Below are positions 2,382-29,020 of a DNA stretch of 64,000 nt, piece by piece. Source of the stretch: a virus; the UHGV virus genome UHGV-1374697; one strand, written 5' to 3'. Below the pieces are notes generated by a model. The model saw only the letters and a program-made list of their open reading frames with translations. It made no database searches and was not told the origin of the DNA. Position numbers and translations under genes: made by a program. How positions within the stretch are numbered: the first letter of the stretch is position 1; every line of letters begins with the position of its first letter.

Positions 2382-5300
2382 CTACTGCTTCATCCGATTA
2401 TGAATTTCCTCCGCACTCAATGCCCCGTCAATCTGAATGCTACCCTTCCTCATGAGGTTGATAATGAGTTTCTTCTGCTCTTCGATTAGGCGTTTGCCCT
2501 CGTCCGTGGTATTAGACTTCTGCAATTCGCGGTTGAGCTTCGCGATAGCCTCACGTCCTGCTTGCGGGCTGATGATGTAGGGCATGATGCCTTTCATGGC
2601 CGCGCCGTAGGTCTTGGCACTCATACCGGAACTCTCAATCGCGGAAGCCAGAACTTCCTTCCGCAGAGCGGGGTCAAGCATGTTTGTAATTTCCGTAACA
2701 AACCGGACACTATTGACTAGCTTGGTGAAATTCTTCACGGCATCCGCGGTTTCCGCGGCTTCCATAGATTCCACATCCACCCCGGATTCCATTCTCTTGT
2801 AGAAGTCCGGACGAAGGACGCTCATTCGCTTCGACTTAGTGACCGCCGCGTTGGCATTCTTTAACCCGGCGGCAAGGGCTTCGGTCAAATCCTTCGGACG
2901 ACGGAGGCCCGCACCCAAGGTCTGTAACCCGTATGCCGCGGCACTCATGTCGGGCGTATCACTAAACATTTGTTTACCAGACTTGACTGCCCAGCCGTAG
3001 ACGGGAATCTTTTTATTGGCAACCGTCGCGAATCGTTCAAGGACTTGCCATGTATGTCCACTGCCGAACGAGGGGTTCAGCCCTGCGGCCAACAGGATTG
3101 CGTTGCCGACTGCCGGGAGAACGTTGACACTTTCATCACCGGAGAGGCTATGCTTGTAATTGAAGTCTTCCTCATTAAACAATTCAGTAGCTGTGTTCAG
3201 AAGGAGGGATTCTTCAAGCACCGTATTTTCCAGCAGGTTTTTCAGTTCGGCAACCTTGTTCATCCCCCACTTGTCCACATCCATATCCATGAAGAGGCTG
3301 GGCAGGGTTTTGGCTAACACCCTGATGGTCTTGAACGGGTTCATGTATTCAAGGTTCAAATACTCGAACTCATGTCGCTTCATATCTATGATGCCAATCA
3401 AGTCCCCGAACTTATCATAGTCAGGAATTAGCCCACTATCTGCCAGCTTCCTCATGACTTCCGCGTCGTCAATGATTTTACGGTCATCGTCATCTCCCAA
3501 GACACTGGCGATAATCTGTCGGGCAACCCAGGAAGAGACCGCAGAGGTTGCAGAAATAGTTCCAAAGGAACCCGCGGCACGAAGGATAGCGCGTCCCAAG
3601 AGGTAAGCCCCCTCCTTCTTCATGCCGTTATTGATAGCCCACACACCGTCTACCCCTTCACCTATGGCGTGGCCAAGGTTGTAGGCTACAGACTGGAAGG
3701 TATGGTACTGGAACATGAAGAACGGAGCCGCAACTATATTCAGGGTTTTCACCCACGAAGGAGTACGCGAACCCGTGGGGAGCAAGCTCTTCACCATGTG
3801 GGCAGTATACCTGTCCACATAAGCATCCCAACTCTGGGTAGTCTGGCTCGCGTCAAGGAGTATCTGGTCCCGCGCATTGGGGTTGTCCTTGCCCATCGCC
3901 CGCGCCAGTTGTACCTTTAATTGGGTATCGGCAATCGCTCTCTGGTTAGTGAAGAGAACAATCTTGGCCGCCGCGTCCGGCAAGCCATAGGCGAAGGACA
4001 TCGTTTTGATGGGCCATGCTACGACTTTGCCCGCCATCTTGGCGGCATCCTTAGCCACCTCGCCCTTCGTCCGTTCCTGTTTCTCGTTCAGAGCTTCGGC
4101 CAGTTTGAAGAAGGAATCCTCATTCACTTCTTCAAATTCTCCTGCCATCTTACTGAACTCGTCAGACTTCCAGACGTTGCGCAGGAACTCCCCTTGACCT
4201 GCGTCCAGCAGACCAAGCTCTTGCCAGTAGCGAATCTTCTCGTTGTACCTGTCTTCCGCGGCCAGCAGTCTATCCGCGGAAGCCTGTGAAGCAAGGTCCT
4301 TGCCCTGTGATAGCCGCCGTAGCTTACGCAACTGGACCCAGTCCCCGACAAGGTTTGCGATGTCTTTACTCCCCGTGAATGGAAGTGCACCCGCATGGGT
4401 CATTTGAGCTACTGTACCATATAAGTTACGTAACGTGGAATTAGGGCTCGCTATTAAGACAGAAAGGTTAGCCAAGCCACCCGCCTTACTCCACCATCCT
4501 TGCCCCTTGCCGGACTTCTGCCAGTACTCGCGGACCTTCTTATAGTCATCCGTCCTGCTATTCAGGATGTCGTCGCTCGGCCTATAGATGTGGTAGATGG
4601 CATCAGCTACATCCTTGTCGGCGTACATTCCGTTCAACGCATTCTTCGTATTCTTCAAGGAGATTTCCACCATGTCCGAGGTACGGTTTGTGGAATTCGG
4701 GGGTACGACCACACCCTGCGCTTTCAGTACGGAGGCATACTCGTCAGCAAGCAACTGGTTCACGGCAATCTTCGACTGCATGGATAGGGTATTCTGCAAT
4801 GTCCCAATGGCGTCCCCAATGGTGAGGTCGCTAAGTTCATACATAGCTTTCCTCTGCCATTCGGGCAAGCGTTTCCGCTGGGCCAGCGCATCTTCATTCG
4901 TCCTCTTCTTGGACAGAACTTCGTCAATGGCCTTCATGGCATCGTTCACCGCAAGACGGGAGAGTTCCGGATACTGCAACACTTTCAAGTCGGTAGCGGA
5001 GATGACGTTGCCCATATTGTTCGCCCTCATGAGAATGCCCGCCTGACCCCGGAGAAGATTGAGCGTCTTGTCCAGTCGTTCTGCGGCATTCATATCAGGC
5101 GTGTTCCATATCTGGTCGATGGCCGAAGTCGGGATAGTGGGGATGGCCTTGTTCACTTCGGAAGCCACGGATGCCGGGGATTCAAGACTGCCGATTTTGT
5201 CCGCAATCGTTTCTCCCGGAAGGTCGGAGAAGACTTCGGCGAGGAAACTATCTCTGGCATTCCTGTCCAGAGTTTCCTTCGTCTCTGTCATCTTTGACTT

Positions 5301-8300
5301 CGTGCGATAGTCTGCCTGTGCTATCATGCTCATGGCCTTATCATATATGGCACTGATGTTATGGCCATCTCGCAGGTCTGCAAGCATTTGAACCGCGCCG
5401 AAGTTGTTCTGAATGAAGTCCAGAATTTCCCTGTTCCTGTAGTTCTTGGCTACACCTTCGAACAGGAGTTTATAATTCGCGGAGGCTCTCGGTGGAGCGG
5501 ATACCAGCGGAAGTTTCAACTCGTCGTGGAGCGCGGCCAATGCCTGCATGTTGTCCAGCACTTGGCTTACGTTTTCGGATAGTTCTCTCTGGTGCGCTTC
5601 GGCATGAGAGATTGCGGCTTCCTGCAACAGTTTCGTCAGACCGTCGTATTTCTGCGCCAGTTCTCCGTTGGGGTTTGCGATGATGTCCTTCATCGTCCGG
5701 GTGAAGTCTCCGGCATGGCGTCCTACGGCCATGTAGGTGCGATGAAGATAATTCATCTCCGCGGCGTTGTCAGCCATGCGGCTATCTCCAATGAGCTTGG
5801 CAATAGAGATTTGCGTTGCGGCAATTTCTTTACGGGAATCGGCGATGACATTGTGGACCAGTTGACCTACAACCCCCTGTGACAGAAGCCACTGTTCAGC
5901 GGCATCCCGCTTAGCCATATACTCCGCTTGTTTTTGACGGCGTGCATTGAGGATAGCGTTGTCCCGTTTCAGCCACACGGAACCGGCAGGGGTAGCTACG
6001 CCAGCGCGAGTTACACCCGCCTTCTTTGTTGCGGCGTAGAAATCCTCCTTGGCTTCCCGGATGATTTGTTTAGCTTCGGCCCGTGCCTTAGCGATGTCCT
6101 GAATCATAGGAGCGATGGCGGGATGGTTTGTACTCTCCGCATAGAGATAGTCATTGCGAAGGTTGGACCACCTGTCCAGAAGTTCATCCATAGAGAAGGG
6201 ACTATCCACCTCGTTAATCATATCCGCGAGATAGTTTTGCGTGTCGCGGGCAAGGCCAAAGTAGGTGGCTTCCAGATTGGCATTCCCCGTCGCGGAGATA
6301 CGAGAGCCAAGGTCGGAGAGCGATTTGTGAATCTGCTGGGAGAGCATGGGGAGAGCTACCTGCTTGTCCAGCATGGCTCCATATCCCTTGCCGCTCATGT
6401 CTTTAATCCGGCGCATCATGTCGTTGATTTCCAATCGCCCTTCACTATTAAGCGCAAGGGAGTTAGCCAGACGCACCGCTTCCGCGTGCCTATTGACGGC
6501 ATCGGTGACGGTCTTCTTAGCCAACGCGATACGGAAGTCGCGGGTCTGTTCATGCTGACGAACTTCTGCTTGAGCCTCTGCGTTAATGCGTGCAACGGTT
6601 TCAGGGTCAATGTCGTTGTCCATATTCCCTGACATGTCGAGAATGGACTTGCTCCATTTCTTTCGCGTAGCGGCATCCCAGCCCAGATTATCCGCACGGC
6701 GTTGAAGCATATCGCCGATTTTGTCAATGCGTTTAATACTGCGTTCATACGCCGCATTCACGTTTGCCATTTGTTCCAGCACAATCAGCTTCTGTTCCTC
6801 GGACTTAACATTGATGCCAGCCTTGTCCCAGTTCTTGGTTACACCCAGCCATCCGTTCTTAATACTAGTTACCCAGTTCCCGGCATTCGTGCCAATGATT
6901 TCTGCGCCAAGGCCGAAGGACAATCTCCGGGTCATGTCAGTCTCATAGGCCATCGGGTTAAAATAATCTACCCCGTTGCCCATAGTATAATCCGTATCGT
7001 CTACCTTCCACGACGGAGTGCGAGGCATATCGAACCACTTGCCGGGGGTCATGTCCGCGACGCGGGCCACATAGGAATCCCATTCAGCCGCGCGTTCTGC
7101 GGCGGTGGTTCCGTCCATATCGTCCGCAGTTTGTCGCACGTCCCTAATCAAATCCTTAAGCCATTCGACGAGGCGCACATGAATAGGCTTCCGGCCTCCC
7201 GCCGCTTCGGCATAGCGAGCCAAATCCGTGATGGTGATATTGTCTCCGCTAGCTTCCGCTACCATGAAGTTCATGACAGGATTGGAGAACGCGACACTGG
7301 CAAATTCGTCCGGGCCGCGGAGACCATAGTTGAGGTCGGAAGCGAGCGCGGCGATGGCATTCATCTCATTGATGTCCACGCTAGCGTCATACATAGCGGA
7401 GAGACTATCGACAATGTTGTTGTAGTTCTCTGCAATCGCGCTTCTAATCCTATCCATCCGCTGGGAATAGTCCGTGTTGGTGGTACGAAGATGACGGTCA
7501 ATGAGGTGGATGACTTCGTGTAGTACCGTTCCCGTTACGCTTTCAATCGGGTTATCCCGGTTCACGTACAGGTCAATGACACCGCCGACAAGCTTCCCGT
7601 CCGTGCCGTTCATGTAGGTGATACTGGCAGGGGAAGAGATGTTCGCCGGGGCATTGGTTGCACGGATAGCAACATCCAAACCAGCGGCATGCAGTGCGCG
7701 GAGCACTCCATCAATGGCCGCGGCCTGTGCGGGGGAGGCATTAACTTGAAGGTCCGAAAGGATGCCGTAGGCATTTGCGCCAGTCCCATCCGTCGGGAGA
7801 TTGAGAGCGGAGACCTTGTCTCCCCACTTGGTGCTGGGTGTCCCTCCCTCGCCCGTGTTGTACATGCTTGCGTGCGGAGCGATGACAATGGTTTCTCCCG
7901 TGTTGCTGGTAATCATGGGGGCGTTAATCCCGGTCATCTCGTTCAGGGAGACGAGCTTCGCGCCGCGCTCCAATGGCGTACCATAGGAGAGCCACGCACC
8001 AGTATTACTATCGAACGAGGCGATTGCCGCATCCATGTTATCCACAGTTTCCACGGAACTGGGGGTAACTACTCCCGTCTCTACCATAGCGGCAACGGGG
8101 GCAATAGCATTGTCCCTCTCCTTCCGGGCAATAGCTACCGGGGATTCCTTGGGTTCCGCGGTAGCCGTGGTAGCCGTGGTAGCCGTGGGTTCCGTCAATC
8201 CGTTAATAACGTTAATGGCGGCATCAAGGTCCTCGTCCCCTGTAGTAATGATGGACAGGTCGTCGTCTACTTCGATAACCTGAACCCGGTCTCCCATAGC

Positions 8301-11300
8301 ATCAAGGGCTTCGGACAACATGGTGCGCATGGTGTCGAGGTTTTCCTTATTTGGGAATGACAGGGTATTGGGCAGGTCGTTAATGGCTTCTGCCATGAAT
8401 GAGCTTGCCGCGGCACTGCCCTCATAGGTATATATTTCGGAGGCCCGTTCCACTAGGTTGCGGAACTGGGTGAAGTTGCTGATGCCCATACGGGTTGCTC
8501 CTTCCACCCACGCCTTGCGGGTTTCATCGGAGACTGCCAGACTTTCATGGGCAATGGATTTGTCCACCCATTCGCGGGCAACTTCCGCGGCATCCCCCTT
8601 CTCCCCGGCAATCTCGATAACCTTCTTTCCGGTTTCTACCAAGCTTTCTGGTACGTTGTTTTTGGTAATGGCTTTGCCCGTTTCCTCGATGATGTTGCTC
8701 GCATCTTTCGTAATATCCGGTAGCATGGAAGTAGCATCCTTTACATCTAGGGTGGGAACGGCTTCGGTTTGGAAACGTATGTTCCCTTCACCAGCTAAGT
8801 GGCTACCAACGTAGCCGCCGATACCACCAAGGAAAGCAATCTTCATGCCTGTGCTAATCACTTGGTCAGTAGTGGCAATAGAGGATTCGGAGATTTCTCC
8901 GTTCTTCACCAGTTCGGTAAACGCCCACTCTTGGAATTCGTCTGTCAGTTCTTCGGTGGCTCCTTCCACTACGGCCTTGCTCGTGCTGTACAGATAGGAA
9001 GCAACGGCAAACGTCTTTTCCTTCGTGTTCATCTCCTTAAATGGCTTGCTTCTCCATCCGGCAATCTTCCGTTCAAGGGTTTGGAATGGAGATTGACCGC
9101 GAAGGTTTTTAGCCCCAATAATCTTACGCATGTAGGAATCCATACCTGCGCGGTTGTTGATGAGAGTACTACCAGTAGATACGAGAGCCGCGCCAAAGAG
9201 GGCACGCATGTTAGCAATGCTCTGTGCCCTGTTCAAGTTCTCGGCAGTCGGTTCCTTCCCTTCCATCTCCCTATCATAAATGGTATAGAAGATGTCGGAG
9301 TAAGCATTCGGTGCAACCTGCGAGATGATGCTAAGATTTACCCCGGCTCCGGCTCCTGCCCGTTCGAGGTTCAACGCCGCAAGGTTGTCAAGGTTGCGCT
9401 GAATAGTTCCACTCAAACGTCCCGCCAATCCCGGACGGGCGGCAGGGACAAGAGCTTCGGCCCGCTTCGCTACAACGTTAGCCGTTGCCTTCATGAATTT
9501 ATTGAGCGCGGTACGTTCCAGTGCACGGCCAGCGAGGCCGCCAACTTTACCAGCCCCCGCGGTTGCTACCATTTGGTAGCCGAGGTTAGCGATTTCCGCA
9601 GTATAGTCCGCAAGGATATTGCCTCGAACCAACTCGGCTTCTGCTTCCTGTTTTTTGTTCAGCTGGTCCCAGAGGGTGCGGGTATGTTCCATCGCCGCAC
9701 GACTGCCAACTGCATTCTGTGCAAAGAGAAGAGCACCATAGGCGGTACTTGTCCCAAGGTCGATTGCCTTGTGCGTACCTATCTGTAACCCGCGGAGAAC
9801 AGAGTTGATGGTGTCTTGCCCTTTCTCCTGCCATGCGGAGAGGATGTCCTCGTCGCTCTTGCCCGCTTCCTTCTGTTCGTTGTAAAAATTCTTGAAGGAA
9901 AGGTGCTTGTCCAGATGCTTCATGGATTCAGTCAAGATAGGGTTGAACTGCAAGCCGGAGCCAAGCCACGTATCGCGAAGCGTCCCCAGCGTCTCGTCCA
10001 ATGCAATGTTGTCCTTCACAAGTTCCTGTGCGGATTTCTTGCGGAGGTTCTGGAACTTCTCAATGGTGCGATTGATGAGACCTTCGTCCGCGCCACTAGC
10101 ACGGAGAGCCTCAATGCTCTGGTCCATCAGCTTATCATTGTAGAGAGCATTGGGGTTCAGTTCGAGTGTGGCGTTCGTATCAACTTCCTTGGTGTGCGGG
10201 TTGTACACAAAGAGACTGCCACGGCCTACGCCCAAGTCACCCATGCGTGCGGCATGGGAGAGGGAGTTGAGGGCATCGCGAGTACTTTCAATATGGTACT
10301 GGTCCATGTACTCCTTCAACCTCTCCGGTCCGACTTCAAAGGATGGGCCGCCCGGCATGCCATACCACCATGTGCCACGCTTCGTTCCCTTCCTCCATTC
10401 CATCAAACTCATTGGGTCAGCGTACTTACCCACACTATTATCCGGTTGGAAGGTAAGTACGTCCGCAATTTGTCCCGCCGTGCTTCGGTAGTTAGCCAGT
10501 GCGCCTTTGACTGCATCCATGAGAGTGCCTTTCGGCGTGGCTTTGGCGGTATAGTCCTGAATCAGTTTGGTTACTCCCGCTTGGCGCAGGGCAGATTTTG
10601 GAACCCCCGGAAACCTTGTGGCCACGGCTTCCAGTATAGCCTCACTCATGCCAATCTGTTCGGGGTTTTCGACGGTCAGAGGGCGGTCCTTCTGGCGGTG
10701 AACTTCCTCGGCAATGACCTTTGCCCGTGCACGTATTGCGTCCATGTCAGCACCGGGGACTAAAGACAGAAGGGCAGAGGCCGCGGCCTCTGGATTGAGA
10801 AGCGCGTCGCGAAGTTCGAGATAGGGAAGGCCAGTGTAGTCCTCTTCGAGGCGTCTTACGATTTTGTCGGCTGTTTCTATCTGTTCACGAATCCTATCCT
10901 CAACAGGTTTTTCTTTTTTTGAAATGAGTTTTGCTTGGTCTGTATGGAGTTGTTTCGCATATGCGGTAGCAGATTCCGGGGAATCGAAAACTCCTAGATG
11001 CTTCCCTGTTTTTCGGAATTGTTCTATTGCTTCCTTTTCCGTTAAAAGTCTTCCATCTTCGGATACTGTGGGAATAAGGTATTCTTTATCATCAACCCCT
11101 ATGGACATAGACCGTACCGTACTCACGGAACCATCAGGGTTTTTAACTTGAGGGCGTTGATTCAAATCGAGATTACCTGCCTCCACCATACCAGAGATGT
11201 CGGTCAAAGCCCGATTTCCCGATATATAACTACCACTGTTCCGGGAAAGGTAATCCCCGTAGTCGCGGACAAGTTGGAACATTTTGCTGGGAGACTTGGA

Positions 11301-12308
11301 AAGGTTGGCGAGTTCAGCAAAAACATTCCCAGTAAATGAAGGTGCTGAATCAGAGAATTCGCCAACGCCAAGCTCCCCCACGCTCGTTTGGCTGGGGGTT
11401 TTCTTCTGCAAGCCCTCTGTCGAAGCGGCCCGGTATTTGTTGTAGAGAGACTTCGCGGCTCGGTAGTTGTCAATGTCTTCGCGCCTAATCGTATTGATGA
11501 CGCTTTCTATTTCTTCTGCGGTGTAAGCAATAGGTGCGGTCTCGATGGCTTGCGCCGTAGGTTTACCAGACACAACATCTAGATTCGAGTTGAGGTAATC
11601 CTTCCGGGCCTTTTCCATTGTGTTTGCAATGGATTTGGCCACCGCCTTTGCGTCCCGGTTTCTGTCCGCGGCAATGGCGAGGAACTTTTCCGTTACCACG
11701 GGGTTCCCATCTTCTCCACTTCCGAAGCCAGAGCGGGATAAGAAGGCGGGGTGCGTAGGCGTAAGCTCGGAAGAAGACACAACGGTAATTCCCGTATTGT
11801 TGGCAAGCTTCTTAAGGGCCTCACTATCGCCGCGGGAAGCGGCCTTCAAATCAACCAGCGCATCTTCGCCGCGGTCTACGTAATCTTTCGCGTCATCAAT
11901 CTCGACGAAGTTGAATCCACGGTTTCCACGGTTCAAGACACCGAGGGCTTTCTGCTCTTCCGCGGCTTGCCATCCGGCTTCCGTATGCGCCCTGCTCTTC
12001 TTGTCCCATTCCGCTTCATTTGCATCCTTGGCTTTCTGTGCCTGTTCCTTCTCAAAGTCATCGACAGACTTAAAGAGGAAGGTGTCATAGTCTGCGGTCG
12101 CCGTCGCTCCCTTCTCGGCACGGGTCTGTCTCTTTTCCGCTAACCTTTGCTCGCGGTCCAGTGCTTTCTGTTCTCGGTCCTGCTGTTTCTGCGCTTGCGT
12201 CTCTTGCCACGCGGCGTGCCTTTCTGCGGCACGTGATTCACGCGCGATACTACTTCCCGACGTCGGAGTGAAGTCGGACATATTGGCGGTACTAAAATCG
12301 ATGGCCAT
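2382..12308 (-). CDS. giant multidomain virion or ejection protein (3308 aa) with a zincin-like HExxH motif; candidate polyvalent or internal virion protein
   Basis: Uninterrupted 9.9-kb ORF at the distal end of the late operon, after other large structural ORFs. HEVIH (VLHEVIHLIDRHL) is encoded at 7507-7521, reading on the minus strand. The N-terminal 150 aa are highly charged and coiled-coil. I found no DxDGD (double-psi beta-barrel RNA polymerase) or T7-like RNA polymerase motif by eye. Confidence 0.85.
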   Translation of the reverse strand: MAIDFSTANMSDFTPTSGSSIARESRAAERHAAWQETQAQKQQDREQKALDREQRLAEKRQTRAEKGATATADYDTFLFKSVDDFEKEQAQKAKDANEAEWDKKSRAHTEAGWQAAEEQKALGVLNRGNRGFNFVEIDDAKDYVDRGEDALVDLKAASRGDSEALKKLANNTGITVVSSSELTPTHPAFLSRSGFGSGEDGNPVVTEKFLAIAADRNRDAKAVAKSIANTMEKARKDYLNSNLDVVSGKPTAQAIETAPIAYTAEEIESVINTIRREDIDNYRAAKSLYNKYRAASTEGLQKKTPSQTSVGELGVGEFSDSAPSFTGNVFAELANLSKSPSKMFQLVRDYGDYLSRNSGSYISGNRALTDISGMVEAGNLDLNQRPQVKNPDGSVSTVRSMSIGVDDKEYLIPTVSEDGRLLTEKEAIEQFRKTGKHLGVFDSPESATAYAKQLHTDQAKLISKKEKPVEDRIREQIETADKIVRRLEEDYTGLPYLELRDALLNPEAAASALLSLVPGADMDAIRARAKVIAEEVHRQKDRPLTVENPEQIGMSEAILEAVATRFPGVPKSALRQAGVTKLIQDYTAKATPKGTLMDAVKGALANYRSTAGQIADVLTFQPDNSVGKYADPMSLMEWRKGTKRGTWWYGMPGGPSFEVGPERLKEYMDQYHIESTRDALNSLSHAARMGDLGVGRGSLFVYNPHTKEVDTNATLELNPNALYNDKLMDQSIEALRASGADEGLINRTIEKFQNLRKKSAQELVKDNIALDETLGTLRDTWLGSGLQFNPILTESMKHLDKHLSFKNFYNEQKEAGKSDEDILSAWQEKGQDTINSVLRGLQIGTHKAIDLGTSTAYGALLFAQNAVGSRAAMEHTRTLWDQLNKKQEAEAELVRGNILADYTAEIANLGYQMVATAGAGKVGGLAGRALERTALNKFMKATANVVAKRAEALVPAARPGLAGRLSGTIQRNLDNLAALNLERAGAGAGVNLSIISQVAPNAYSDIFYTIYDREMEGKEPTAENLNRAQSIANMRALFGAALVSTGSTLINNRAGMDSYMRKIIGAKNLRGQSPFQTLERKIAGWRSKPFKEMNTKEKTFAVASYLYSTSKAVVEGATEELTDEFQEWAFTELVKNGEISESSIATTDQVISTGMKIAFLGGIGGYVGSHLAGEGNIRFQTEAVPTLDVKDATSMLPDITKDASNIIEETGKAITKNNVPESLVETGKKVIEIAGEKGDAAEVAREWVDKSIAHESLAVSDETRKAWVEGATRMGISNFTQFRNLVERASEIYTYEGSAAASSFMAEAINDLPNTLSFPNKENLDTMRTMLSEALDAMGDRVQVIEVDDDLSIITTGDEDLDAAINVINGLTEPTATTATTATAEPKESPVAIARKERDNAIAPVAAMVETGVVTPSSVETVDNMDAAIASFDSNTGAWLSYGTPLERGAKLVSLNEMTGINAPMITSNTGETIVIAPHASMYNTGEGGTPSTKWGDKVSALNLPTDGTGANAYGILSDLQVNASPAQAAAIDGVLRALHAAGLDVAIRATNAPANISSPASITYMNGTDGKLVGGVIDLYVNRDNPIESVTGTVLHEVIHLIDRHLRTTNTDYSQRMDRIRSAIAENYNNIVDSLSAMYDASVDINEMNAIAALASDLNYGLRGPDEFASVAFSNPVMNFMVAEASGDNITITDLARYAEAAGGRKPIHVRLVEWLKDLIRDVRQTADDMDGTTAAERAAEWDSYVARVADMTPGKWFDMPRTPSWKVDDTDYTMGNGVDYFNPMAYETDMTRRLSFGLGAEIIGTNAGNWVTSIKNGWLGVTKNWDKAGINVKSEEQKLIVLEQMANVNAAYERSIKRIDKIGDMLQRRADNLGWDAATRKKWSKSILDMSGNMDNDIDPETVARINAEAQAEVRQHEQTRDFRIALAKKTVTDAVNRHAEAVRLANSLALNSEGRLEINDMMRRIKDMSGKGYGAMLDKQVALPMLSQQIHKSLSDLGSRISATGNANLEATYFGLARDTQNYLADMINEVDSPFSMDELLDRWSNLRNDYLYAESTNHPAIAPMIQDIAKARAEAKQIIREAKEDFYAATKKAGVTRAGVATPAGSVWLKRDNAILNARRQKQAEYMAKRDAAEQWLLSQGVVGQLVHNVIADSRKEIAATQISIAKLIGDSRMADNAAEMNYLHRTYMAVGRHAGDFTRTMKDIIANPNGELAQKYDGLTKLLQEAAISHAEAHQRELSENVSQVLDNMQALAALHDELKLPLVSAPPRASANYKLLFEGVAKNYRNREILDFIQNNFGAVQMLADLRDGHNISAIYDKAMSMIAQADYRTKSKMTETKETLDRNARDSFLAEVFSDLPGETIADKIGSLESPASVASEVNKAIPTIPTSAIDQIWNTPDMNAAERLDKTLNLLRGQAGILMRANNMGNVISATDLKVLQYPELSRLAVNDAMKAIDEVLSKKRTNEDALAQRKRLPEWQRKAMYELSDLTIGDAIGTLQNTLSMQSKIAVNQLLADEYASVLKAQGVVVPPNSTNRTSDMVEISLKNTKNALNGMYADKDVADAIYHIYRPSDDILNSRTDDYKKVREYWQKSGKGQGWWSKAGGLANLSVLIASPNSTLRNLYGTVAQMTHAGALPFTGSKDIANLVGDWVQLRKLRRLSQGKDLASQASADRLLAAEDRYNEKIRYWQELGLLDAGQGEFLRNVWKSDEFSKMAGEFEEVNEDSFFKLAEALNEKQERTKGEVAKDAAKMAGKVVAWPIKTMSFAYGLPDAAAKIVLFTNQRAIADTQLKVQLARAMGKDNPNARDQILLDASQTTQSWDAYVDRYTAHMVKSLLPTGSRTPSWVKTLNIVAAPFFMFQYHTFQSVAYNLGHAIGEGVDGVWAINNGMKKEGAYLLGRAILRAAGSFGTISATSAVSSWVARQIIASVLGDDDDRKIIDDAEVMRKLADSGLIPDYDKFGDLIGIIDMKRHEFEYLNLEYMNPFKTIRVLAKTLPSLFMDMDVDKWGMNKVAELKNLLENTVLEESLLLNTATELFNEEDFNYKHSLSGDESVNVLPAVGNAILLAAGLNPSFGSGHTWQVLERFATVANKKIPVYGWAVKSGKQMFSDTPDMSAAAYGLQTLGAGLRRPKDLTEALAAGLKNANAAVTKSKRMSVLRPDFYKRMESGVDVESMEAAETADAVKNFTKLVNSVRFVTEITNMLDPALRKEVLASAIESSGMSAKTYGAAMKGIMPYIISPQAGREAIAKLNRELQKSNTTDEGKRLIEEQKKLIINLMRKGSIQIDGALSAEEIHNRMKQ

Positions 12309-18125: not shown

Positions 18126-18887
18126 TTATTTCCTTGACAACAGAGTTAGGGCGTAAGCATGTCGCGCATTGCATCGGTTGGACCAGCCGGAGAGAAACTT
18201 CGCCTTCACTGGATTGGCCCTTACAATGGAACAGTAGCGGGCACGACAAGCACGGTCCAGCGAATCGAGAACTTCCTTTTCATCCCATGATTGAATGGCG
18301 TCTGTCCATTTGGCTTGAGTATTTTTCCCCCACTTGCCATCAATACCAATGTCGAGCATGCGCTGGACGACCTTAGTCGTTCCCGCCACGCCCATGTTGA
18401 AGGTCATGTCACGAAGCATGAACTCAATGGCGTAGCATCCTGCAACTCCCTTGGCAACCAGTGGTTCCGTATTGGCGAGAACATAGCGGAGGCATTCATC
18501 CCATGCCGCATCCCTGTCGCCCCGGTCCATCATGGATTTGATTAGATTGAATTCCTTGGGTTCAATCCCATCACAGATACCGGCAATCTCCCACTTGCCG
18601 CCGCCATCACCCGAGGGGAGGCGAGTTACGCGCAGAGAATCGGGACCTGTAATCTTGTAGTCCTCCATGTTGAGAATCTTCTTTGCCATGTCCTTGCGGA
18701 CAAGCTCGGCCGGAGGTTCCACGGGACCCGCGGATACCGGGGAATCGTTGGGTTGTTCATCGGGTTCCACGGAAACCGTGGGTTGTATCTTCTTCCATAT
18801 AGCATCAATGGTCTTATCACCAAGGATACCGTCGGGTGAAGTTCCCGCCCACTTCTGTATTTCCTTTATCTTGTCTTTCCTTGTCAT
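18126..18887 (-). CDS. putative endolysin or peptidoglycan-binding lysis enzyme
   Basis: 253 aa. The N-terminal WAGTSPDGILGDKTIDAIWKKIQ matches the PG_binding_1-type motif (DGxxGxxTxxAl). A second related motif occurs as IDGKWGKNTQAKWTDAIQ. I did not match the catalytic domain to a specific family. Confidence 0.5.
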   Translation of the reverse strand: MTRKDKIKEIQKWAGTSPDGILGDKTIDAIWKKIQPTVSVEPDEQPNDSPVSAGPVEPPAELVRKDMAKKILNMEDYKITGPDSLRVTRLPSGDGGGKWEIAGICDGIEPKEFNLIKSMMDRGDRDAAWDECLRYVLANTEPLVAKGVAGCYAIEFMLRDMTFNMGVAGTTKVVQRMLDIGIDGKWGKNTQAKWTDAIQSWDEKEVLDSLDRACRARYCSIVRANPVKAKFLSGWSNRCNARHAYALTLLSRK

Positions 18888-25132: not shown

Positions 25133-25486
25133 TTAGATTGTTTGTGGCCGGAAGATGTCACGACAGAAAGTGATACCTTTCGGAGTTAGTTTACTTTTAG
25201 TCTGTCTCCTCGACCCCCTCACTCCCTCGTATTCAATATACCCTTTTTCTTCCAGCTTGCGCAGGATAGAGTAAAGAGAAGATATGGGGATGCGAGTGCT
25301 CTCACTTATTGTAGGATTCTCATGTTTCTGCTCGAAGCCATTGGCGTGCATGTACAGAAGAACACGAACATAGTCGAGAGGGAGCGAAGGGTCAAGAAGG
25401 TCAATATTCAGAAGGAGACCGAGCAAGGCTCGCTGATTGCTCTGGCCCTTCTGTATGGTTCTGGTTGTGGAGTAGGTCGTTCTCAT
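25133..25486 (-). CDS. PadR-like winged-helix transcriptional regulator
   Basis: 117 aa. ISSLYSILRKLEEKGYIEYEGVRGSRRQTKSKLTPKG matches the PadR recognition helix and wing pattern (tlYpxLxrLExxGlixxxxxxxxxrrrkyYxlTxxG). Confidence 0.5.
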   Translation of the reverse strand: MRTTYSTTRTIQKGQSNQRALLGLLLNIDLLDPSLPLDYVRVLLYMHANGFEQKHENPTISESTRIPISSLYSILRKLEEKGYIEYEGVRGSRRQTKSKLTPKGITFCRDIFRPQTI

Positions 25487-25959
25487 ACGTCAGAGCTATC
25501 TAAACCTAAATGGGACAACAAGTCAACTATGTTGTACGCAAATCGTGTTCTACGCCCGCGAGGGTCACTATCATCACGATACCGTACACGTTGAACTTTG
25601 CCCCGCTTGAAGAGGGTGGTCAGATACGCAGGGGACTTTAGTCCCGTAGATTCCAATGCGGTAGCTACATCAACGTACCCTTCCGGGATATTGTCATATA
25701 GGCCTTTGACCTGCATCTGAATATATTCATTGGCTCCTTCCCCTTCCCAGTACATGGTATGCCCACAACGAACGTGTTTGACCTTCAATCGGTTCAGGGC
25801 GTGAATTACCCACACGGAGCTTCTCCCAATTTTATCGGCAATCTCCCCGGTGGCAATGTAGCCCTTCGGTATGTTCTTTACCGGGGGAGTACTATGCCGT
25901 GGCCTCCGTGGATGTTTCAATCCGGGATGGACGATTAGTCCTCTACTGTTCTTCTTCAT
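25483..25959 (-). CDS. putative HTH DNA-binding protein (158 aa)
   Basis: IATGEIADKIGRSSVWVIHAL is HTH-like. It overlaps the PadR-like gene by 4 nt. Confidence 0.45.
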   Translation of the reverse strand: MKKNSRGLIVHPGLKHPRRPRHSTPPVKNIPKGYIATGEIADKIGRSSVWVIHALNRLKVKHVRCGHTMYWEGEGANEYIQMQVKGLYDNIPEGYVDVATALESTGLKSPAYLTTLFKRGKVQRVRYRDDSDPRGRRTRFAYNIVDLLSHLGLDSSDV

Positions 25960-26042
25960 GCAGGGGTAAAGTCGTTGTCGTTATTGTTCTCGATGATGTA
26001 GTAGAAGAGAATACCGAGAAGAAATCCGATTAGTGTGTACAT
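25956..26042 (-). CDS. 28-aa hydrophobic micro-ORF (MYTLIGFLLGILFYYIIENNNDNDFTPA) coupled to the HTH gene
   Basis: Hand-translated from the 87-nt gap. Its TGA overlaps the ATG of 25483..25959 as an ATGA. It falls below the ORF-track size cutoff. Confidence 0.3.
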   Translation of the reverse strand: MYTLIGFLLGILFYYIIENNNDNDFTPA

Positions 26043-26046
26043 ACGT

Positions 26047-26277
26047 TTAGCGTGAGAGTTTCGTTGCATGGTTCAATGCGTCATTGGGAATTAGGAGAAT
26101 TTCATCCGCGGTCGTATATCCACCGTTATATGGTACGACGAAGGAGAATCCATCCGCGATGAGCTTGTCGATAAGCTCTGTGTCCGAGAGGATAGCAAGG
26201 AGAGCTGGGGACATGAGTTTCTCTCCCAGAAGGAAGTTACGCAGTTGTTTAATTTGTCCAATGTATGGTAGGTTCAT
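26047..26277 (-). CDS. hypothetical protein (76 aa)
   Basis: An ORF only. Confidence 0.4.
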   Translation of the reverse strand: MNLPYIGQIKQLRNFLLGEKLMSPALLAILSDTELIDKLIADGFSFVVPYNGGYTTADEILLIPNDALNHATKLSR

Positions 26278-26374
26278 GAGATAAAATGTTATGCGGCGAG
26301 GTCTCCCTCCGCGATTAGTATTGAGTTAATGGGGAGGACGAATCCTCCCCCGCTAATGGTTGTCCAGTGAGCGT

Positions 26375-27511
26375 TCATTTTTCTTGGGACTTCATAGTTA
26401 ATACGAAGCTATTCCAGCGGGCTACCGCTTCTTCGCGAGTGCGGCCATGAATGGAAATGCTATGAGGAAGAAGCTTGGCCCCGTTGCAGACGACATAGCA
26501 ATGTTCCTCTCCGGGATAGATGGTTTCCCCCACGACCTCCGGGATTTCTCCACAGTAGGGGCAGGGTCGAGGATGGGCATTGCGTTCATTCACGAACCGG
26601 AGTGCCGCTTGCTTCACTCTTTCGGCAAACATATCAACAATATGCTTCGGCACAATGTGCTTCAGCACAATTCCTTCGTCCCCGGAATCCGTGGCTTCCT
26701 CGTAGTTCAGGAGATGGCCCAGCCCTTCGTCGAAACAGGAGAGACAGGGTTCCACAGATTTGTCCAGATTTTTGTACTTACATGTATCACATGTGGGTCT
26801 CATGATGGTCTCTTCCCCATCCTTGTCCTCCGCTTCTTCATATTCCGGGTACTCAATTCCCCGCTCCCGTCGGCAATGTGAGCATGGAGGATTGCAACGG
26901 AGGTTATCCCGGTGAGTGCAAGTATTGCACGGTTCGATGACATCGTCGTTCTCGTCCGTACCTTCGGCACATGGGGTTGCCTCGTCGGGAGTGTAGTTAT
27001 CATACCAGTTGCAGGAGTGACAGGGTTCCACAGACCTATCCAGATTTTTGTACTTACAGGTGTCACAGGTCCGCTTCAACAATTCTTCTTCCTGCTTCCT
27101 CCGCGCAGATTCATCTGGGGTATAATTCTGATAGCCGTTGCAGGAGATGCAGGGTTCCTCTTCGATAGATACCCCCTTATGTTTACATGTCAGACAGGTA
27201 GGACCAGCCATCTCGGCTTCCCTCTGCTTTATCACTTCCCGCTTCATCATCTCCATCTCTACCAATTTGTTGGTATCGGAGGTGAAGCTGGGAAGTCCGG
27301 GAGTGAGAGCACACTTCCGGCAAGGGGATTGCACTATCGGGACATCGCGGAATTTGCAGAGGGAGCACCTCCGTGCATCCTCGCTTGCCGCGGTGTCCGT
27401 CGCTTGCGTGGATTCAAAGTGGCTAAAGTCCTTGTCGCAGGAAGCACAGGGTTCCGCGGTTTCGGGGAGGTGGCTGTATTTGCAGGTCCAACAATTTGGT
27501 TCGTCGGTCAT
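26375..27511 (-). CDS. protein with seven tandem CxxC-N11-13-CxxC zinc-ribbon repeats (378 aa)
   Basis: Repeated modules such as TCDTCKYKNLDKSVEPCLSC and TCDTCKYKNLDRSVEPCHSC. About 90 nt of the DNA is duplicated with a 276-nt period (around 26743 and 27019). The C-terminus has CPYCGE...CYVVCNG. Confidence 0.65.
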   Translation of the reverse strand: MTDEPNCWTCKYSHLPETAEPCASCDKDFSHFESTQATDTAASEDARRCSLCKFRDVPIVQSPCRKCALTPGLPSFTSDTNKLVEMEMMKREVIKQREAEMAGPTCLTCKHKGVSIEEEPCISCNGYQNYTPDESARRKQEEELLKRTCDTCKYKNLDRSVEPCHSCNWYDNYTPDEATPCAEGTDENDDVIEPCNTCTHRDNLRCNPPCSHCRRERGIEYPEYEEAEDKDGEETIMRPTCDTCKYKNLDKSVEPCLSCFDEGLGHLLNYEEATDSGDEGIVLKHIVPKHIVDMFAERVKQAALRFVNERNAHPRPCPYCGEIPEVVGETIYPGEEHCYVVCNGAKLLPHSISIHGRTREEAVARWNSFVLTMKSQEK

Positions 27512-27627
27512 TTTCTTTTGATGTATTTCTTAATGGTTTCGATTACCCACAGGGTGAATAGGGCGAGGGCGCACAGAGCAATAGCACCCCATGCGAGGAT
27601 GTCAGTAATACCAACAAATATTGTCAT
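27508..27627 (-). CDS. 39-aa single-transmembrane micropeptide (MTIFVGITDILAWGAIALCALALFTLWVIETIKKYIKRK)
   Basis: Hand-translated from the 118-nt gap. Its TGA overlaps the ATG of the zinc-ribbon repeat gene as an ATGA. It lies 3 nt after the upstream stop. Confidence 0.4.
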   Translation of the reverse strand: MTIFVGITDILAWGAIALCALALFTLWVIETIKKYIKRK

Positions 27628-27629
27628 GG

Positions 27630-28037
27630 TTAGTCGATTAGTTTAAGGTCAAAGAACATAACGGTGTTGAAGTAGTTAGTGGTCACTCCATCGATAGCTA
27701 CCCAGCCGTCGCTGTCTTCATCATCGTAAACCGCGTACTCCTGATAGGGCATAGGCTCTTCATCGTAGCTTACCCAGCCACGAGGAACGAATTGTACCCT
27801 ATCCCCTCTCTTGAACGGTCGCCGGGGTTTGGCGGCGTTAGTGCAACCAGCGCGGACAGATTCTTCTGGCGCATCTAGAATTTCTTCCATCTGGTTAGCA
27901 GAGGCCCACTCCGCTAATCCTCCCGAATAGCGTACCTTGTACGGGTAGGAAGAACGTTCGTTGTCGATTTCCACGACGCGACCGCAAGGGCCGCCGTTGA
28001 CGCGGACAATCATTCCGAGTTTTACTTCGTTCGTCAT
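27630..28037 (-). CDS. hypothetical protein with two KOW/SH3-like motifs (about 135 aa)
   Basis: The ATG at 28037 (MTNEVKLGMIVRVNGG) lies 3 nt after the upstream stop, whereas the ATG at 28091 would overlap by 52 nt. A second motif is KRGDRVQFVPRG. Confidence 0.5.
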   Translation of the reverse strand: MTNEVKLGMIVRVNGGPCGRVVEIDNERSSYPYKVRYSGGLAEWASANQMEEILDAPEESVRAGCTNAAKPRRPFKRGDRVQFVPRGWVSYDEEPMPYQEYAVYDDEDSDGWVAIDGVTTNYFNTVMFFDLKLID

Positions 28038-28039
28038 GA

Positions 28040-28501
28040 TTAGAATTTGATGTTTGGGTATTCGCGGTAAAGTCGATAGCGGGTCATCCATATGTAGATT
28101 CCCACAGTTACATAGTTAGCGAGCACGATAAGGAAGAATCCTTCGGCAAGCCACGCAGTGATGATTGAGAGAACGAGCAAGAAGGGGGCAGGAAGAATGG
28201 AGAGGCACTCCACAATGATGGCTACAATCGTTCCAACTACTCCTGCGATAGTCCACAGGATAGAAGTATTAAAGATGTGGTCATACATTGCTTTCATTTC
28301 TCTACGCTCGTAGAGCGTATATCCTCCTCCCCTCGTCCGGTAGCTATTGGTCTCGATGCCAATGAGCTTCCAGTGAGCTTTCAGTCTCTCGGCCATCTTG
28401 GTGAGGGCAGTACCTCCTAAGCCGCGGAGAGCTACACCCGCAAGCGCGAAAAGGCCCGCAAGCGCGAAGTATTGTGTGGTTGATAGATGCAATGCGTTCA
28501 T
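28040..28501 (-). CDS. integral membrane protein (153 aa, 3-4 transmembrane helices)
   Basis: Multiple hydrophobic helices (LAGLFALAGVAL..., ILWTIAGVVGTIVAIIVECLSILPAPFLLVLSIITAWL). Confidence 0.55.
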   Translation of the reverse strand: MNALHLSTTQYFALAGLFALAGVALRGLGGTALTKMAERLKAHWKLIGIETNSYRTRGGGYTLYERREMKAMYDHIFNTSILWTIAGVVGTIVAIIVECLSILPAPFLLVLSIITAWLAEGFFLIVLANYVTVGIYIWMTRYRLYREYPNIKF

Positions 28502-28519: not shown

Positions 28520-28942
28520 TTACTCGGCTTGCTCCATTCCCCACGGCCATTCAACTATCCTGCCGGGTTCAATGCTTCGTCCGTCTTCCAACAGGATGCG
28601 CATGGAGACACGGGTTCTTCCTGCAACGATTCCAGTATGCCGACGGAACATACCGTCGAAGTACTGGATTTCGTCACCGGGTTGAAGACGCAGAACCGGA
28701 GGGAGTTCTTCAATAAACTGGCGGGCGGTAAGCCATGCCTTTTCCTTCGCCTCTTCATAATCGTCACTGTCATCTCCCAGCACCGCTAATTCGCAACTCA
28801 TACACTCTACGAACACGTAGTTGCCGCGATGTGCTTCTCTCAATAGGCCGCCGCAGATTGGGCAGAACAGTTGAGGAGGTCCCTCTTCCTCTGGGAATAC
28901 TTCGTCAATAGTAATCTGTTTGGTGTTTGATGTCTTGGACAT
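28520..28942 (-). CDS. zinc-ribbon protein (140 aa)
   Basis: CPICGG...CMSCE, a four-Cys ribbon. The C-terminus has a PGDEIQYFDG KOW-like motif. It is the first gene after the terminator and promoter region. Confidence 0.5.
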   Translation of the reverse strand: MSKTSNTKQITIDEVFPEEEGPPQLFCPICGGLLREAHRGNYVFVECMSCELAVLGDDSDDYEEAKEKAWLTARQFIEELPPVLRLQPGDEIQYFDGMFRRHTGIVAGRTRVSMRILLEDGRSIEPGRIVEWPWGMEQAE

Positions 28943-28990
28943 GCCACCACCATATAATAATTTTATTATTTGTCAAGAAATTATTTCAAT

Positions 28991-29020
28991 AAAAATCCCC
29001 GGAGGGATTACCCTCCGGGG
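28991..29020 (-). terminator. rho-independent terminator, followed by a TTGACA-containing promoter-like region
   Basis: On the minus strand: CCCCGGAGGG-taat-CCCTCCGGGG-atttttattg, then TTCTTGACAAATAATAAAATTATTATATGG and ggtggtggcATG (28942). Confidence 0.65.

Follow-up and report, generated by a model that had tools for sequence, protein, structure and literature searches.

Does a phage protein that strings zinc-binding modules together act on host, on phage or on neither, and is the 39-residue membrane peptide encoded directly ahead of it a partner or a neighbour? This question is raised by positions 26375..27627 (minus strand) of a 64,000-nucleotide stretch of UHGV virus genome UHGV-1374697, referred to here, as a whole, as the window. 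The zinc-ribbon array gene (26375..27511, minus strand) encodes 378 residues, as stated in an earlier note made from the letters of the DNA, and the micropeptide gene (27508..27627, minus strand) overlaps its start. The analysis revealed a conserved micropeptide gene, an array of six modules that leads into a helix and a Lar-like zinc-ribbon domain, a discrete accessory cassette that holds both genes, and extreme turnover of the modules among relatives. At a probability of about 40%, we suggest that the array protein is a host-takeover or anti-defence factor in which the Lar-like tail is the functional head and the array a multivalent, changing adaptor, the peptide being co-expressed but not demonstrably a partner. 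The findings are descriptive, and we infer function from a sub-threshold family resemblance together with an evolutionary pattern.

A zinc-ribbon array with a Lar-like C-terminal domain

The array protein contains 30 cysteines and is acidic (isoelectric point 5.0; 69 acidic versus 45 basic residues; net charge approximately -24), its modules being joined by strongly acidic linkers. Six modules follow the exact pattern C-x2-C-x11-C-x2-C. From the N-terminus, and all on the minus strand, these are module 1 (residues 7-25, 27437..27493, CWTC-X11-CASC), module 2 (residues 49-67, 27311..27367, CSLC-X11-CRKC), module 3 (residues 106-124, 27140..27196, CLTC-X11-CISC), module 4 (residues 149-167, 27011..27067, CDTC-X11-CHSC), which is missing from the commonest five-module relatives, module 5 (residues 195-213, 26873..26929, CNTC-X11-CSHC), which carries one additional cysteine, and module 6 (residues 241-259, 26735..26791, CDTC-X11-CLSC), where the phrog_19852 profile was matched (residues 241-263, E 4.1e-8). 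A hidden Markov model (HMM) built from the non-redundant modules was run on the six-frame open reading frames (ORFs) of the window and retrieved six domains in the array protein, with independent E-values of 7e-11 to 2e-16 and a whole-sequence E of 4e-81; no further ORF was matched in any frame. Across 219 distinct modules collected from homologues, the four cysteines and the proline before the third of them were invariant, save for a single module with serine in place of the proline, and the consensus reads P-[TN]-C-x-T-C-K-[YH]-x9-E-P-C-x-S-C, followed by an aromatic and acidic tail.

The earlier note had described seven modules with a spacing of 11 to 13 residues, making up almost the entire protein. 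Six of these stand, always with a spacing of 11, whilst the presumed seventh (CPYC-X17-CYVVC) was missed by the module HMM and instead matches models of the Lar family. The zinc-knuckle cores account for approximately 37% of the protein, the remainder being predicted by AlphaFold to consist of acidic linkers, helices and a C-terminal domain of 95 residues. A recent duplication with a period of 276 nucleotides had also been proposed, and a direct repeat of 59 nucleotides with 88% identity was indeed found at that spacing (26736-26794 and 27012-27070). The two copies correspond to the cores of modules 4 and 6, and as module 5 lies between them the duplication is not tandem. A second repeat, with 75% identity and a spacing of 129 nucleotides, joins the tails of modules 3 and 4, and the modules are mosaics of cores and tails.

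The conserved C-terminal domain (residues 285-378; 26378..26659, minus strand) comprises a helix, the Lar-like zinc ribbon CPYC-X17-CYVVC (residues 317-342), three strands and a C-terminal helix. It aligns along nearly the full profile of the Lar family (Rac prophage Lar; PF14354, TIGR03655, phrog_599), with which it shares a CPxCG knuckle at the N-terminus, a second pair of cysteines, a beta-sheet and, at the C-terminus, a helix that closes with a 'WN' motif. Positions 3-53 of the 55 in TIGR03655 ('Lar family restriction alleviation protein') were aligned to residues 316-368 (E 1.2e-4), and phrog_599 ('Lar-like restriction alleviation protein') was matched with an E of 4e-4. PF14354 was matched by 12 of 30 homologues at E<=0.01 (best E 7.2e-5) and is carried in the precomputed annotations of many homologues. 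Like members of the Lar family, the domain is phage-encoded and lies in an accessory region, and its relatives have been automatically annotated as Lar. Unlike those members, which are free-standing and about the size of their profiles of 55-58 positions, it forms the C-terminal 65-95 residues of a 378-residue protein, has a CxxxC second knuckle, and scores under the curated cut-offs.

An AlphaFold model based on an alignment of 30 sequences was confident over residues 285-378 alone (helix, three strands, helix), with predicted local distance difference test (pLDDT) values of 77-93; the modules appeared as low-confidence beads (pLDDT <50), with linker helices at residues 80-101 and 134-150. 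Neither the module profile nor the C-terminal domain gave a significant match in sequence searches of the PDB, and Foldseek searches against viral models gave only uncharacterised, non-significant matches. The protein had been regarded as part of a module of no recognisable kind; this view does not hold for the conserved C-terminus, which is Lar-like and of which a fragment in nr is already named 'restriction alleviation protein'. By profile comparison, the C-terminal domain is a loose member of a known family, and the repeated module falls in a widespread, uncharacterised PHROG.

Module turnover among relatives

Homologues of the array protein formed 115 clusters, ranging from 207 to 413 residues and from none to seven canonical modules, with five modules in 36 clusters, four in 34, three in 24 and six in 10. 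When module cores and tails were labelled by type, approximately 50 distinct architectures (an upper estimate) were distinguished in 114 clusters, including chimeric combinations of core and tail. The commonest, A-B-C-E-A/f-Lar, was found in 23 clusters. The architecture of the window, A-B-C-D-E-F-Lar, was unique among the representatives, and was identical on contigs from independent samples. By comparison, only six variants of the Lar-like tail were left by a 90% identity filter, and the upstream cassette gene is 88-99% identical in most loci. Given these differences, the array is, at the level of sequence, a hypervariable segment on a conserved head, in which modules have been gained, lost and recombined even among close relatives.

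Loss of a ligand was also encountered. In locus L028 (approximately 3117..4130), the third cysteine of module 2 is replaced by arginine (SPRQKC versus SPCRKC) in a gene that is otherwise intact. An apparent disruption of the zinc-ribbon gene in this locus and in L032 was rejected, as it reflects a gap in Joint Genome Institute (JGI) gene calling and the ORF is intact in the DNA.

A conserved membrane micropeptide upstream of the array

The micropeptide, MTIFVGITDILAWGAIALCALALFTLWVIETIKKYIKRK, ends in the basic tail KKYIKRK and has a 19-residue Kyte-Doolittle maximum of 2.29, well over the usual transmembrane-helix threshold of approximately 1.6. The stop codon of its gene overlaps the ATG of the zinc-ribbon gene as ATGA, and the earlier description of this reading frame as a single-transmembrane ORF coupled in this way is borne out. 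From the basic tail we infer, by the positive-inside rule, a topology with the N-terminus outside and the C-terminus inside. No family match was found in Pfam, PHROGs or NCBIfam.

Conservation of the micro-ORF, proposed in the earlier note as the check on its reality, was followed in 38 loci: 25 from IMG/VR, 12 on other contigs and the diverged locus L039. The frame was intact and overlapped the start of the zinc-ribbon gene in all 38, with neither a stop nor a frameshift. Eleven peptide variants were present in the 25 loci and 12 contigs, differing by hydrophobic-for-hydrophobic substitutions and an in-frame indel of two codons; the ratio of nonsynonymous to synonymous polymorphism (pN/pS) was 0.38, and variable sites were distributed 8/8/10 over the three codon positions. 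In L039, the most diverged locus, where the zinc-ribbon protein is 55% identical, the peptide MSTTLFISISDIITWAAIALCVLVLLTLWAVEAINKKIKKNES is 56% identical and retains the helix, the flanking tryptophans and the basic tail, its gene overlapping the zinc-ribbon gene by 11 nucleotides. Public gene calls list the 39-residue product on identical and related contigs, and it was called in 84 collection blocks; the ORF, described as unannotated in the earlier note, is thus not missed by automated gene calling. The comparison shows the 39-residue ORF to be a genuine, conserved gene for a predicted single-pass membrane protein. That it is untranslated, a spacer or leader for the zinc-ribbon gene, is very improbable: the absence of family matches and the even spread of variable sites over codon positions would fit such a role, but an indel that keeps the frame, the pN/pS value, the lack of any stop or frameshift, and the survival of helix, tryptophans and tail at 56% identity all argue otherwise.

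The coupling of the two genes follows the habit of the genome. In a crude ORF set, an overlap or a gap of <=10 nucleotides was found at 32 of 60 same-strand junctions, seven of which are ATGA overlaps, and the spacing between peptide and zinc-ribbon gene is therefore the default one. A Shine-Dalgarno-like motif was found in only 3 of the 44 genes of the window, which suggests a host with Shine-Dalgarno-independent initiation. One locus, L040, has undergone a deletion that removes most of the gene for a 153-residue membrane protein further upstream and the entire gene of approximately 135 residues that follows it. The product is a 51-residue chimera (P0143; L040 5001..5156) of the N-terminal helix of the 153-residue protein and the C-terminal half of the micropeptide, in which the transmembrane segment, the basic tail and the ATGA overlap with the zinc-ribbon gene are all kept.

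Other roles for the peptide were considered and set aside. It resembles holins, antiholins and superinfection-exclusion peptides in having a hydrophobic helix and a basic C-terminal tail and in lying in a phage accessory region; unlike these, it has no family match and does not adjoin an endolysin gene. A role in lysis was rejected on these same grounds, the endolysin-like gene (18126..18887) being approximately 8.6 kb away. Matches to circular bacteriocins (E 0.01-0.03) fell below cut-offs and were attributed to hydrophobic composition. A programmed frameshift fusing the peptide to the array was likewise rejected, as the frame relation between the two ORFs is not conserved: the zinc-ribbon frame is -1 relative to that of the peptide in the window (ATGA) and +1 in L039 (11-nucleotide overlap). 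Comparison of the slippery site showed an AAA codon replaced by ATA in locus L001.

The micropeptide is not the only small transmembrane peptide in this phage genome whose gene is coupled to the next one downstream. A second hydrophobic micro-ORF, of 37 residues, MQRNSHAKRMYTLIGFLLGILFYYIIENNNDNDFTPA (25956..26069, minus strand), is ATGA-coupled to a gene of 158 residues (25483..25959) and has been called in relatives.

The module family in other phages

A scan of 1.84 billion representatives with the module-profile HMM (E<=1e-3) retrieved 458 clusters, ranging from single-module proteins of 34-80 residues, through many proteins with two modules, to arrays of up to 11 modules (P0146, 654 residues). 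Amongst 140 module proteins from outside the clade of the window, seven were fused to DUF3310, two to dGTP_diPhyd_N and one to a dUTPase, whilst most had no other domain. In other phages, arrays of 8-11 modules, some ending in DUF3310, were observed inside blocks for nucleotide metabolism or early replication; these are apparently uncharacterised. Three distant arrays were placed in context: P0115 (locus L038) lies between NrdD/NrdG and a dUTPase, P0146 (L041, 3001..4965) between a dUTPase and ThyX/dNMP kinase, and P0168 (L042, 3001..4314) between a T7-type RNA polymerase and SSB/primase-helicase. All three lacked a Lar tail, and no transmembrane micro-ORF preceded any of them.

The array of the window thus shares its unit with small phage zinc-ribbon proteins of the phrog_19852 type, down to the identical C-x2-C-x11-C-x2-C pattern, the 'PC' at the third cysteine and the aromatic-acidic tail. 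It differs from the other arrays of this type, which have either DUF3310 or no further domain at the end and are found in blocks for nucleotide metabolism or replication, in being joined to a Lar-like tail, and extreme shuffling is documented only within this clade. That a zinc ribbon can serve as the binding unit of an anti-defence protein has a precedent in Enki, a phage zinc-ribbon protein of 52 residues and an inhibitor of both AbiH and a retron (bioRxiv 10.1101/2024.06.14.598830). Enki is a single-domain protein, as against the multi-module array described here, and is set beside it by description and as an analogy only.

Possible roles of the array and the micropeptide

If the array protein is a factor for host takeover or anti-defence, the conserved Lar-like tail would serve as its functional head and the array as an expandable, multivalent protein-binding adaptor, the two acting together in the manner of restriction alleviation, and the turnover of the array would follow changing host targets. 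The micropeptide is probably translated by termination-reinitiation with the zinc-ribbon gene, as is usual in this genome, which is poor in Shine-Dalgarno motifs, and we treat it as a small membrane protein in its own right that belongs to the same cassette. In the literature searched, fusion of the module to a Lar-like tail, this degree of intragenic shuffling and a flanking micropeptide were not found described, and publications on Lar, zinc ribbons and DUF3310 yielded no mechanism transferable to the array protein.

Several points weigh against this proposal. The TIGR03655 alignment scores 22.3 bits, below the curated cut-off of 39.6, and the protein of the window itself has no match to PF14354 or any other Pfam family at E<=1. 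To our knowledge, the Lar family has a single experimentally characterised member (King & Murray 1995), with no known mechanism, for which reason 'restriction alleviation' serves as a label rather than as a demonstrated activity. The contexts and fusions of the distant arrays, which lack Lar, suggest that the module serves a different purpose or a wider one. Among the variants are gene calls that are frameshifted or truncated, and possibly some artefacts of assembly, hence the upper estimate given for the number of architectures, and the variation in copy number could stem from recombination-prone repeats under weak constraint rather than from an arms race.

The main rival is a role in DNA or nucleotide metabolism, in which the array would regulate enzymes of replication or of the nucleotide pool, serve them as an adaptor, or bind nucleic acid itself, and the Lar-like tail would be just one more zinc ribbon, devoid of any anti-restriction role. 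The three distant arrays lie among genes of precisely this kind, and the fusions to DUF3310, dGTP_diPhyd_N and dUTPase agree with it. We nevertheless regard it as clearly less probable than an anti-defence role, as such fusions account for only approximately 10 of 140 module proteins, the strong acidity of the protein disfavours direct binding to nucleic acid, and the gene lies not in the replication block (44-54 kb) but beyond the presumed (unannotated) structural genes, within a distinct accessory cassette. Somewhat further down the scale, and unlikely in our judgement, is that only the Lar-like domain matters, the array being a near-neutral, recombination-prone tract and the micropeptide serving some unconnected purpose, for example superinfection exclusion or perturbation of the membrane. 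Relatives with 0-3 modules, calls of 85-165 residues consisting of the tail only, frameshifted arrays with an intact tail and the natural cysteine-to-arginine loss in module 2 of L028 would all be expected from such a tract. Set against these are the invariance of the four cysteines and near-invariance of the proline in 219 distinct modules, the exact retention of the 11-residue spacing, the conservation of the module family over 458 clusters in unrelated phages, and the presence of 4-6 modules in most homologues, which together argue for selection on each module.

A dedicated pair, in which the basic tail of the peptide, on the cytoplasmic side, brings the acidic array to the inner membrane for the two to sense or act upon, for example, incoming DNA or a membrane-bound host system, is also unlikely, and a little more so than a neutral array. 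It would account for the adjacency and start/stop overlap kept in all 38 loci, L039 included, for the P0143 chimera, which still supplies a transmembrane helix with the same basic tail and ATGA overlap, and for the complementary charges of the tail (approximately +4) and the protein (approximately -24). Overlap or near-zero spacing is, however, found at 32 of 60 junctions, the whole cassette is syntenic so that linkage is not specific to the pair, and the distant arrays of L038, L041 and L042 have no such peptide. Moreover, the micropeptide family comprises 28 clusters, and those whose context was examined all belong to this phage clade; co-occurrence of the two proteins in unrelated genomes was not found there or with the three distant arrays. 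A bolder version of the same idea, to which we attach little credence, would have the micropeptide tether the Lar-like array at the site of genome entry in the inner membrane, where the array would capture membrane-proximal defences (type I restriction-modification, abortive-infection effectors) and its modules would be reshuffled between sibling phages to follow immunity. If true, this would constitute a previously undescribed class of membrane-anchored anti-defence scaffold, tunable by copy number.

Should the array instead prove to be an expandable scaffold on a Lar-like head, as favoured here, a mechanism would become available for a common module (458 clusters) and for the poorly understood Lar family. 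The array would then also be a clear natural case of domain-number shuffling as a strategy for fast evolution in a phage accessory gene. The conserved membrane peptide of 39 residues is a further gain, as a small phage protein for which the evidence is good.

The accessory cassette and its genome

The locus belongs to an uncultivated tailed phage of approximately 68-70 kb, in which nearly all genes lie on the minus strand; related contigs group at 68-72 kb. The genes include those for a terminase, a family-A DNA polymerase, a primase-helicase, a helicase and an exonuclease, in addition to the endolysin-like gene mentioned above. DNA and protein searches of cultured phage records gave nothing for the locus, and there is no annotated reference genome, since relatives of the DNA polymerase were found only at <=27% identity. 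A giant ORF of 3308 residues (2382..12308, minus strand) had no Pfam match at E<=1e-3 and no PHROG match at E<=1e-5; ORFs of 985, 756 and 718 residues were likewise unmatched, the large proteins of this lineage being essentially unannotatable.

Five tightly packed genes make up the cassette, all on the minus strand, the last two being those for the micropeptide and the array. The first (28520..28942) encodes 140 residues and has a Lar-like zinc ribbon at residues 27-70 (PF14354, E 5e-4). The C-terminus of this protein is SH3/PUA-like, and with its N-terminal ribbon there are two Lar-like proteins in one cassette; BLASTP comparison of the Lar-like tail of the array with this neighbour revealed no meaningful similarity apart from the CPxCG motif. 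It is followed by the gene for the 153-residue multi-pass membrane protein (28040..28501), whose N-terminal helix replaces the N-terminus of the micropeptide in the P0143 chimera, and by the gene of approximately 135 residues (27630..28037), which probably starts at M19 of a 153-residue ORF and gave weak SH3/Tudor-like matches. The gene content at the head of the cassette, upstream of the micropeptide and array genes, differs among relatives, which fits accessory genes.

Just upstream of the cassette (28949..29020, minus strand) are a terminator-like hairpin (28997-29020; 10 bp, nine of them GC, with a T-run) and then two overlapping sigma-70-like promoter matches (28949-28989). These are consensus matches only, and the region is probably the start of the cassette transcription unit. 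Directly 3' of the zinc-ribbon gene is a GC-rich hairpin, GGGGAGGA-UUCG-UCCUCCCC (26331..26350, minus strand), in a region with a fold z-score of -3.6, which is probably the 3' end or a stability element of the cassette. An ORF of 29 residues, MNAHWTTISGGGFVLPINSILIAEGDLAA (26289..26378, minus strand), starts on the stop of the zinc-ribbon gene with an ATGA overlap, and 34 of 35 relatives have it intact. This ORF coincides with two RNA hairpins, in the first of which both arms are altered in variant loci with a 6-bp stem kept, and the element at 26289..26378 could function as a terminator or stabilising element, as a micro-ORF, or in both ways.

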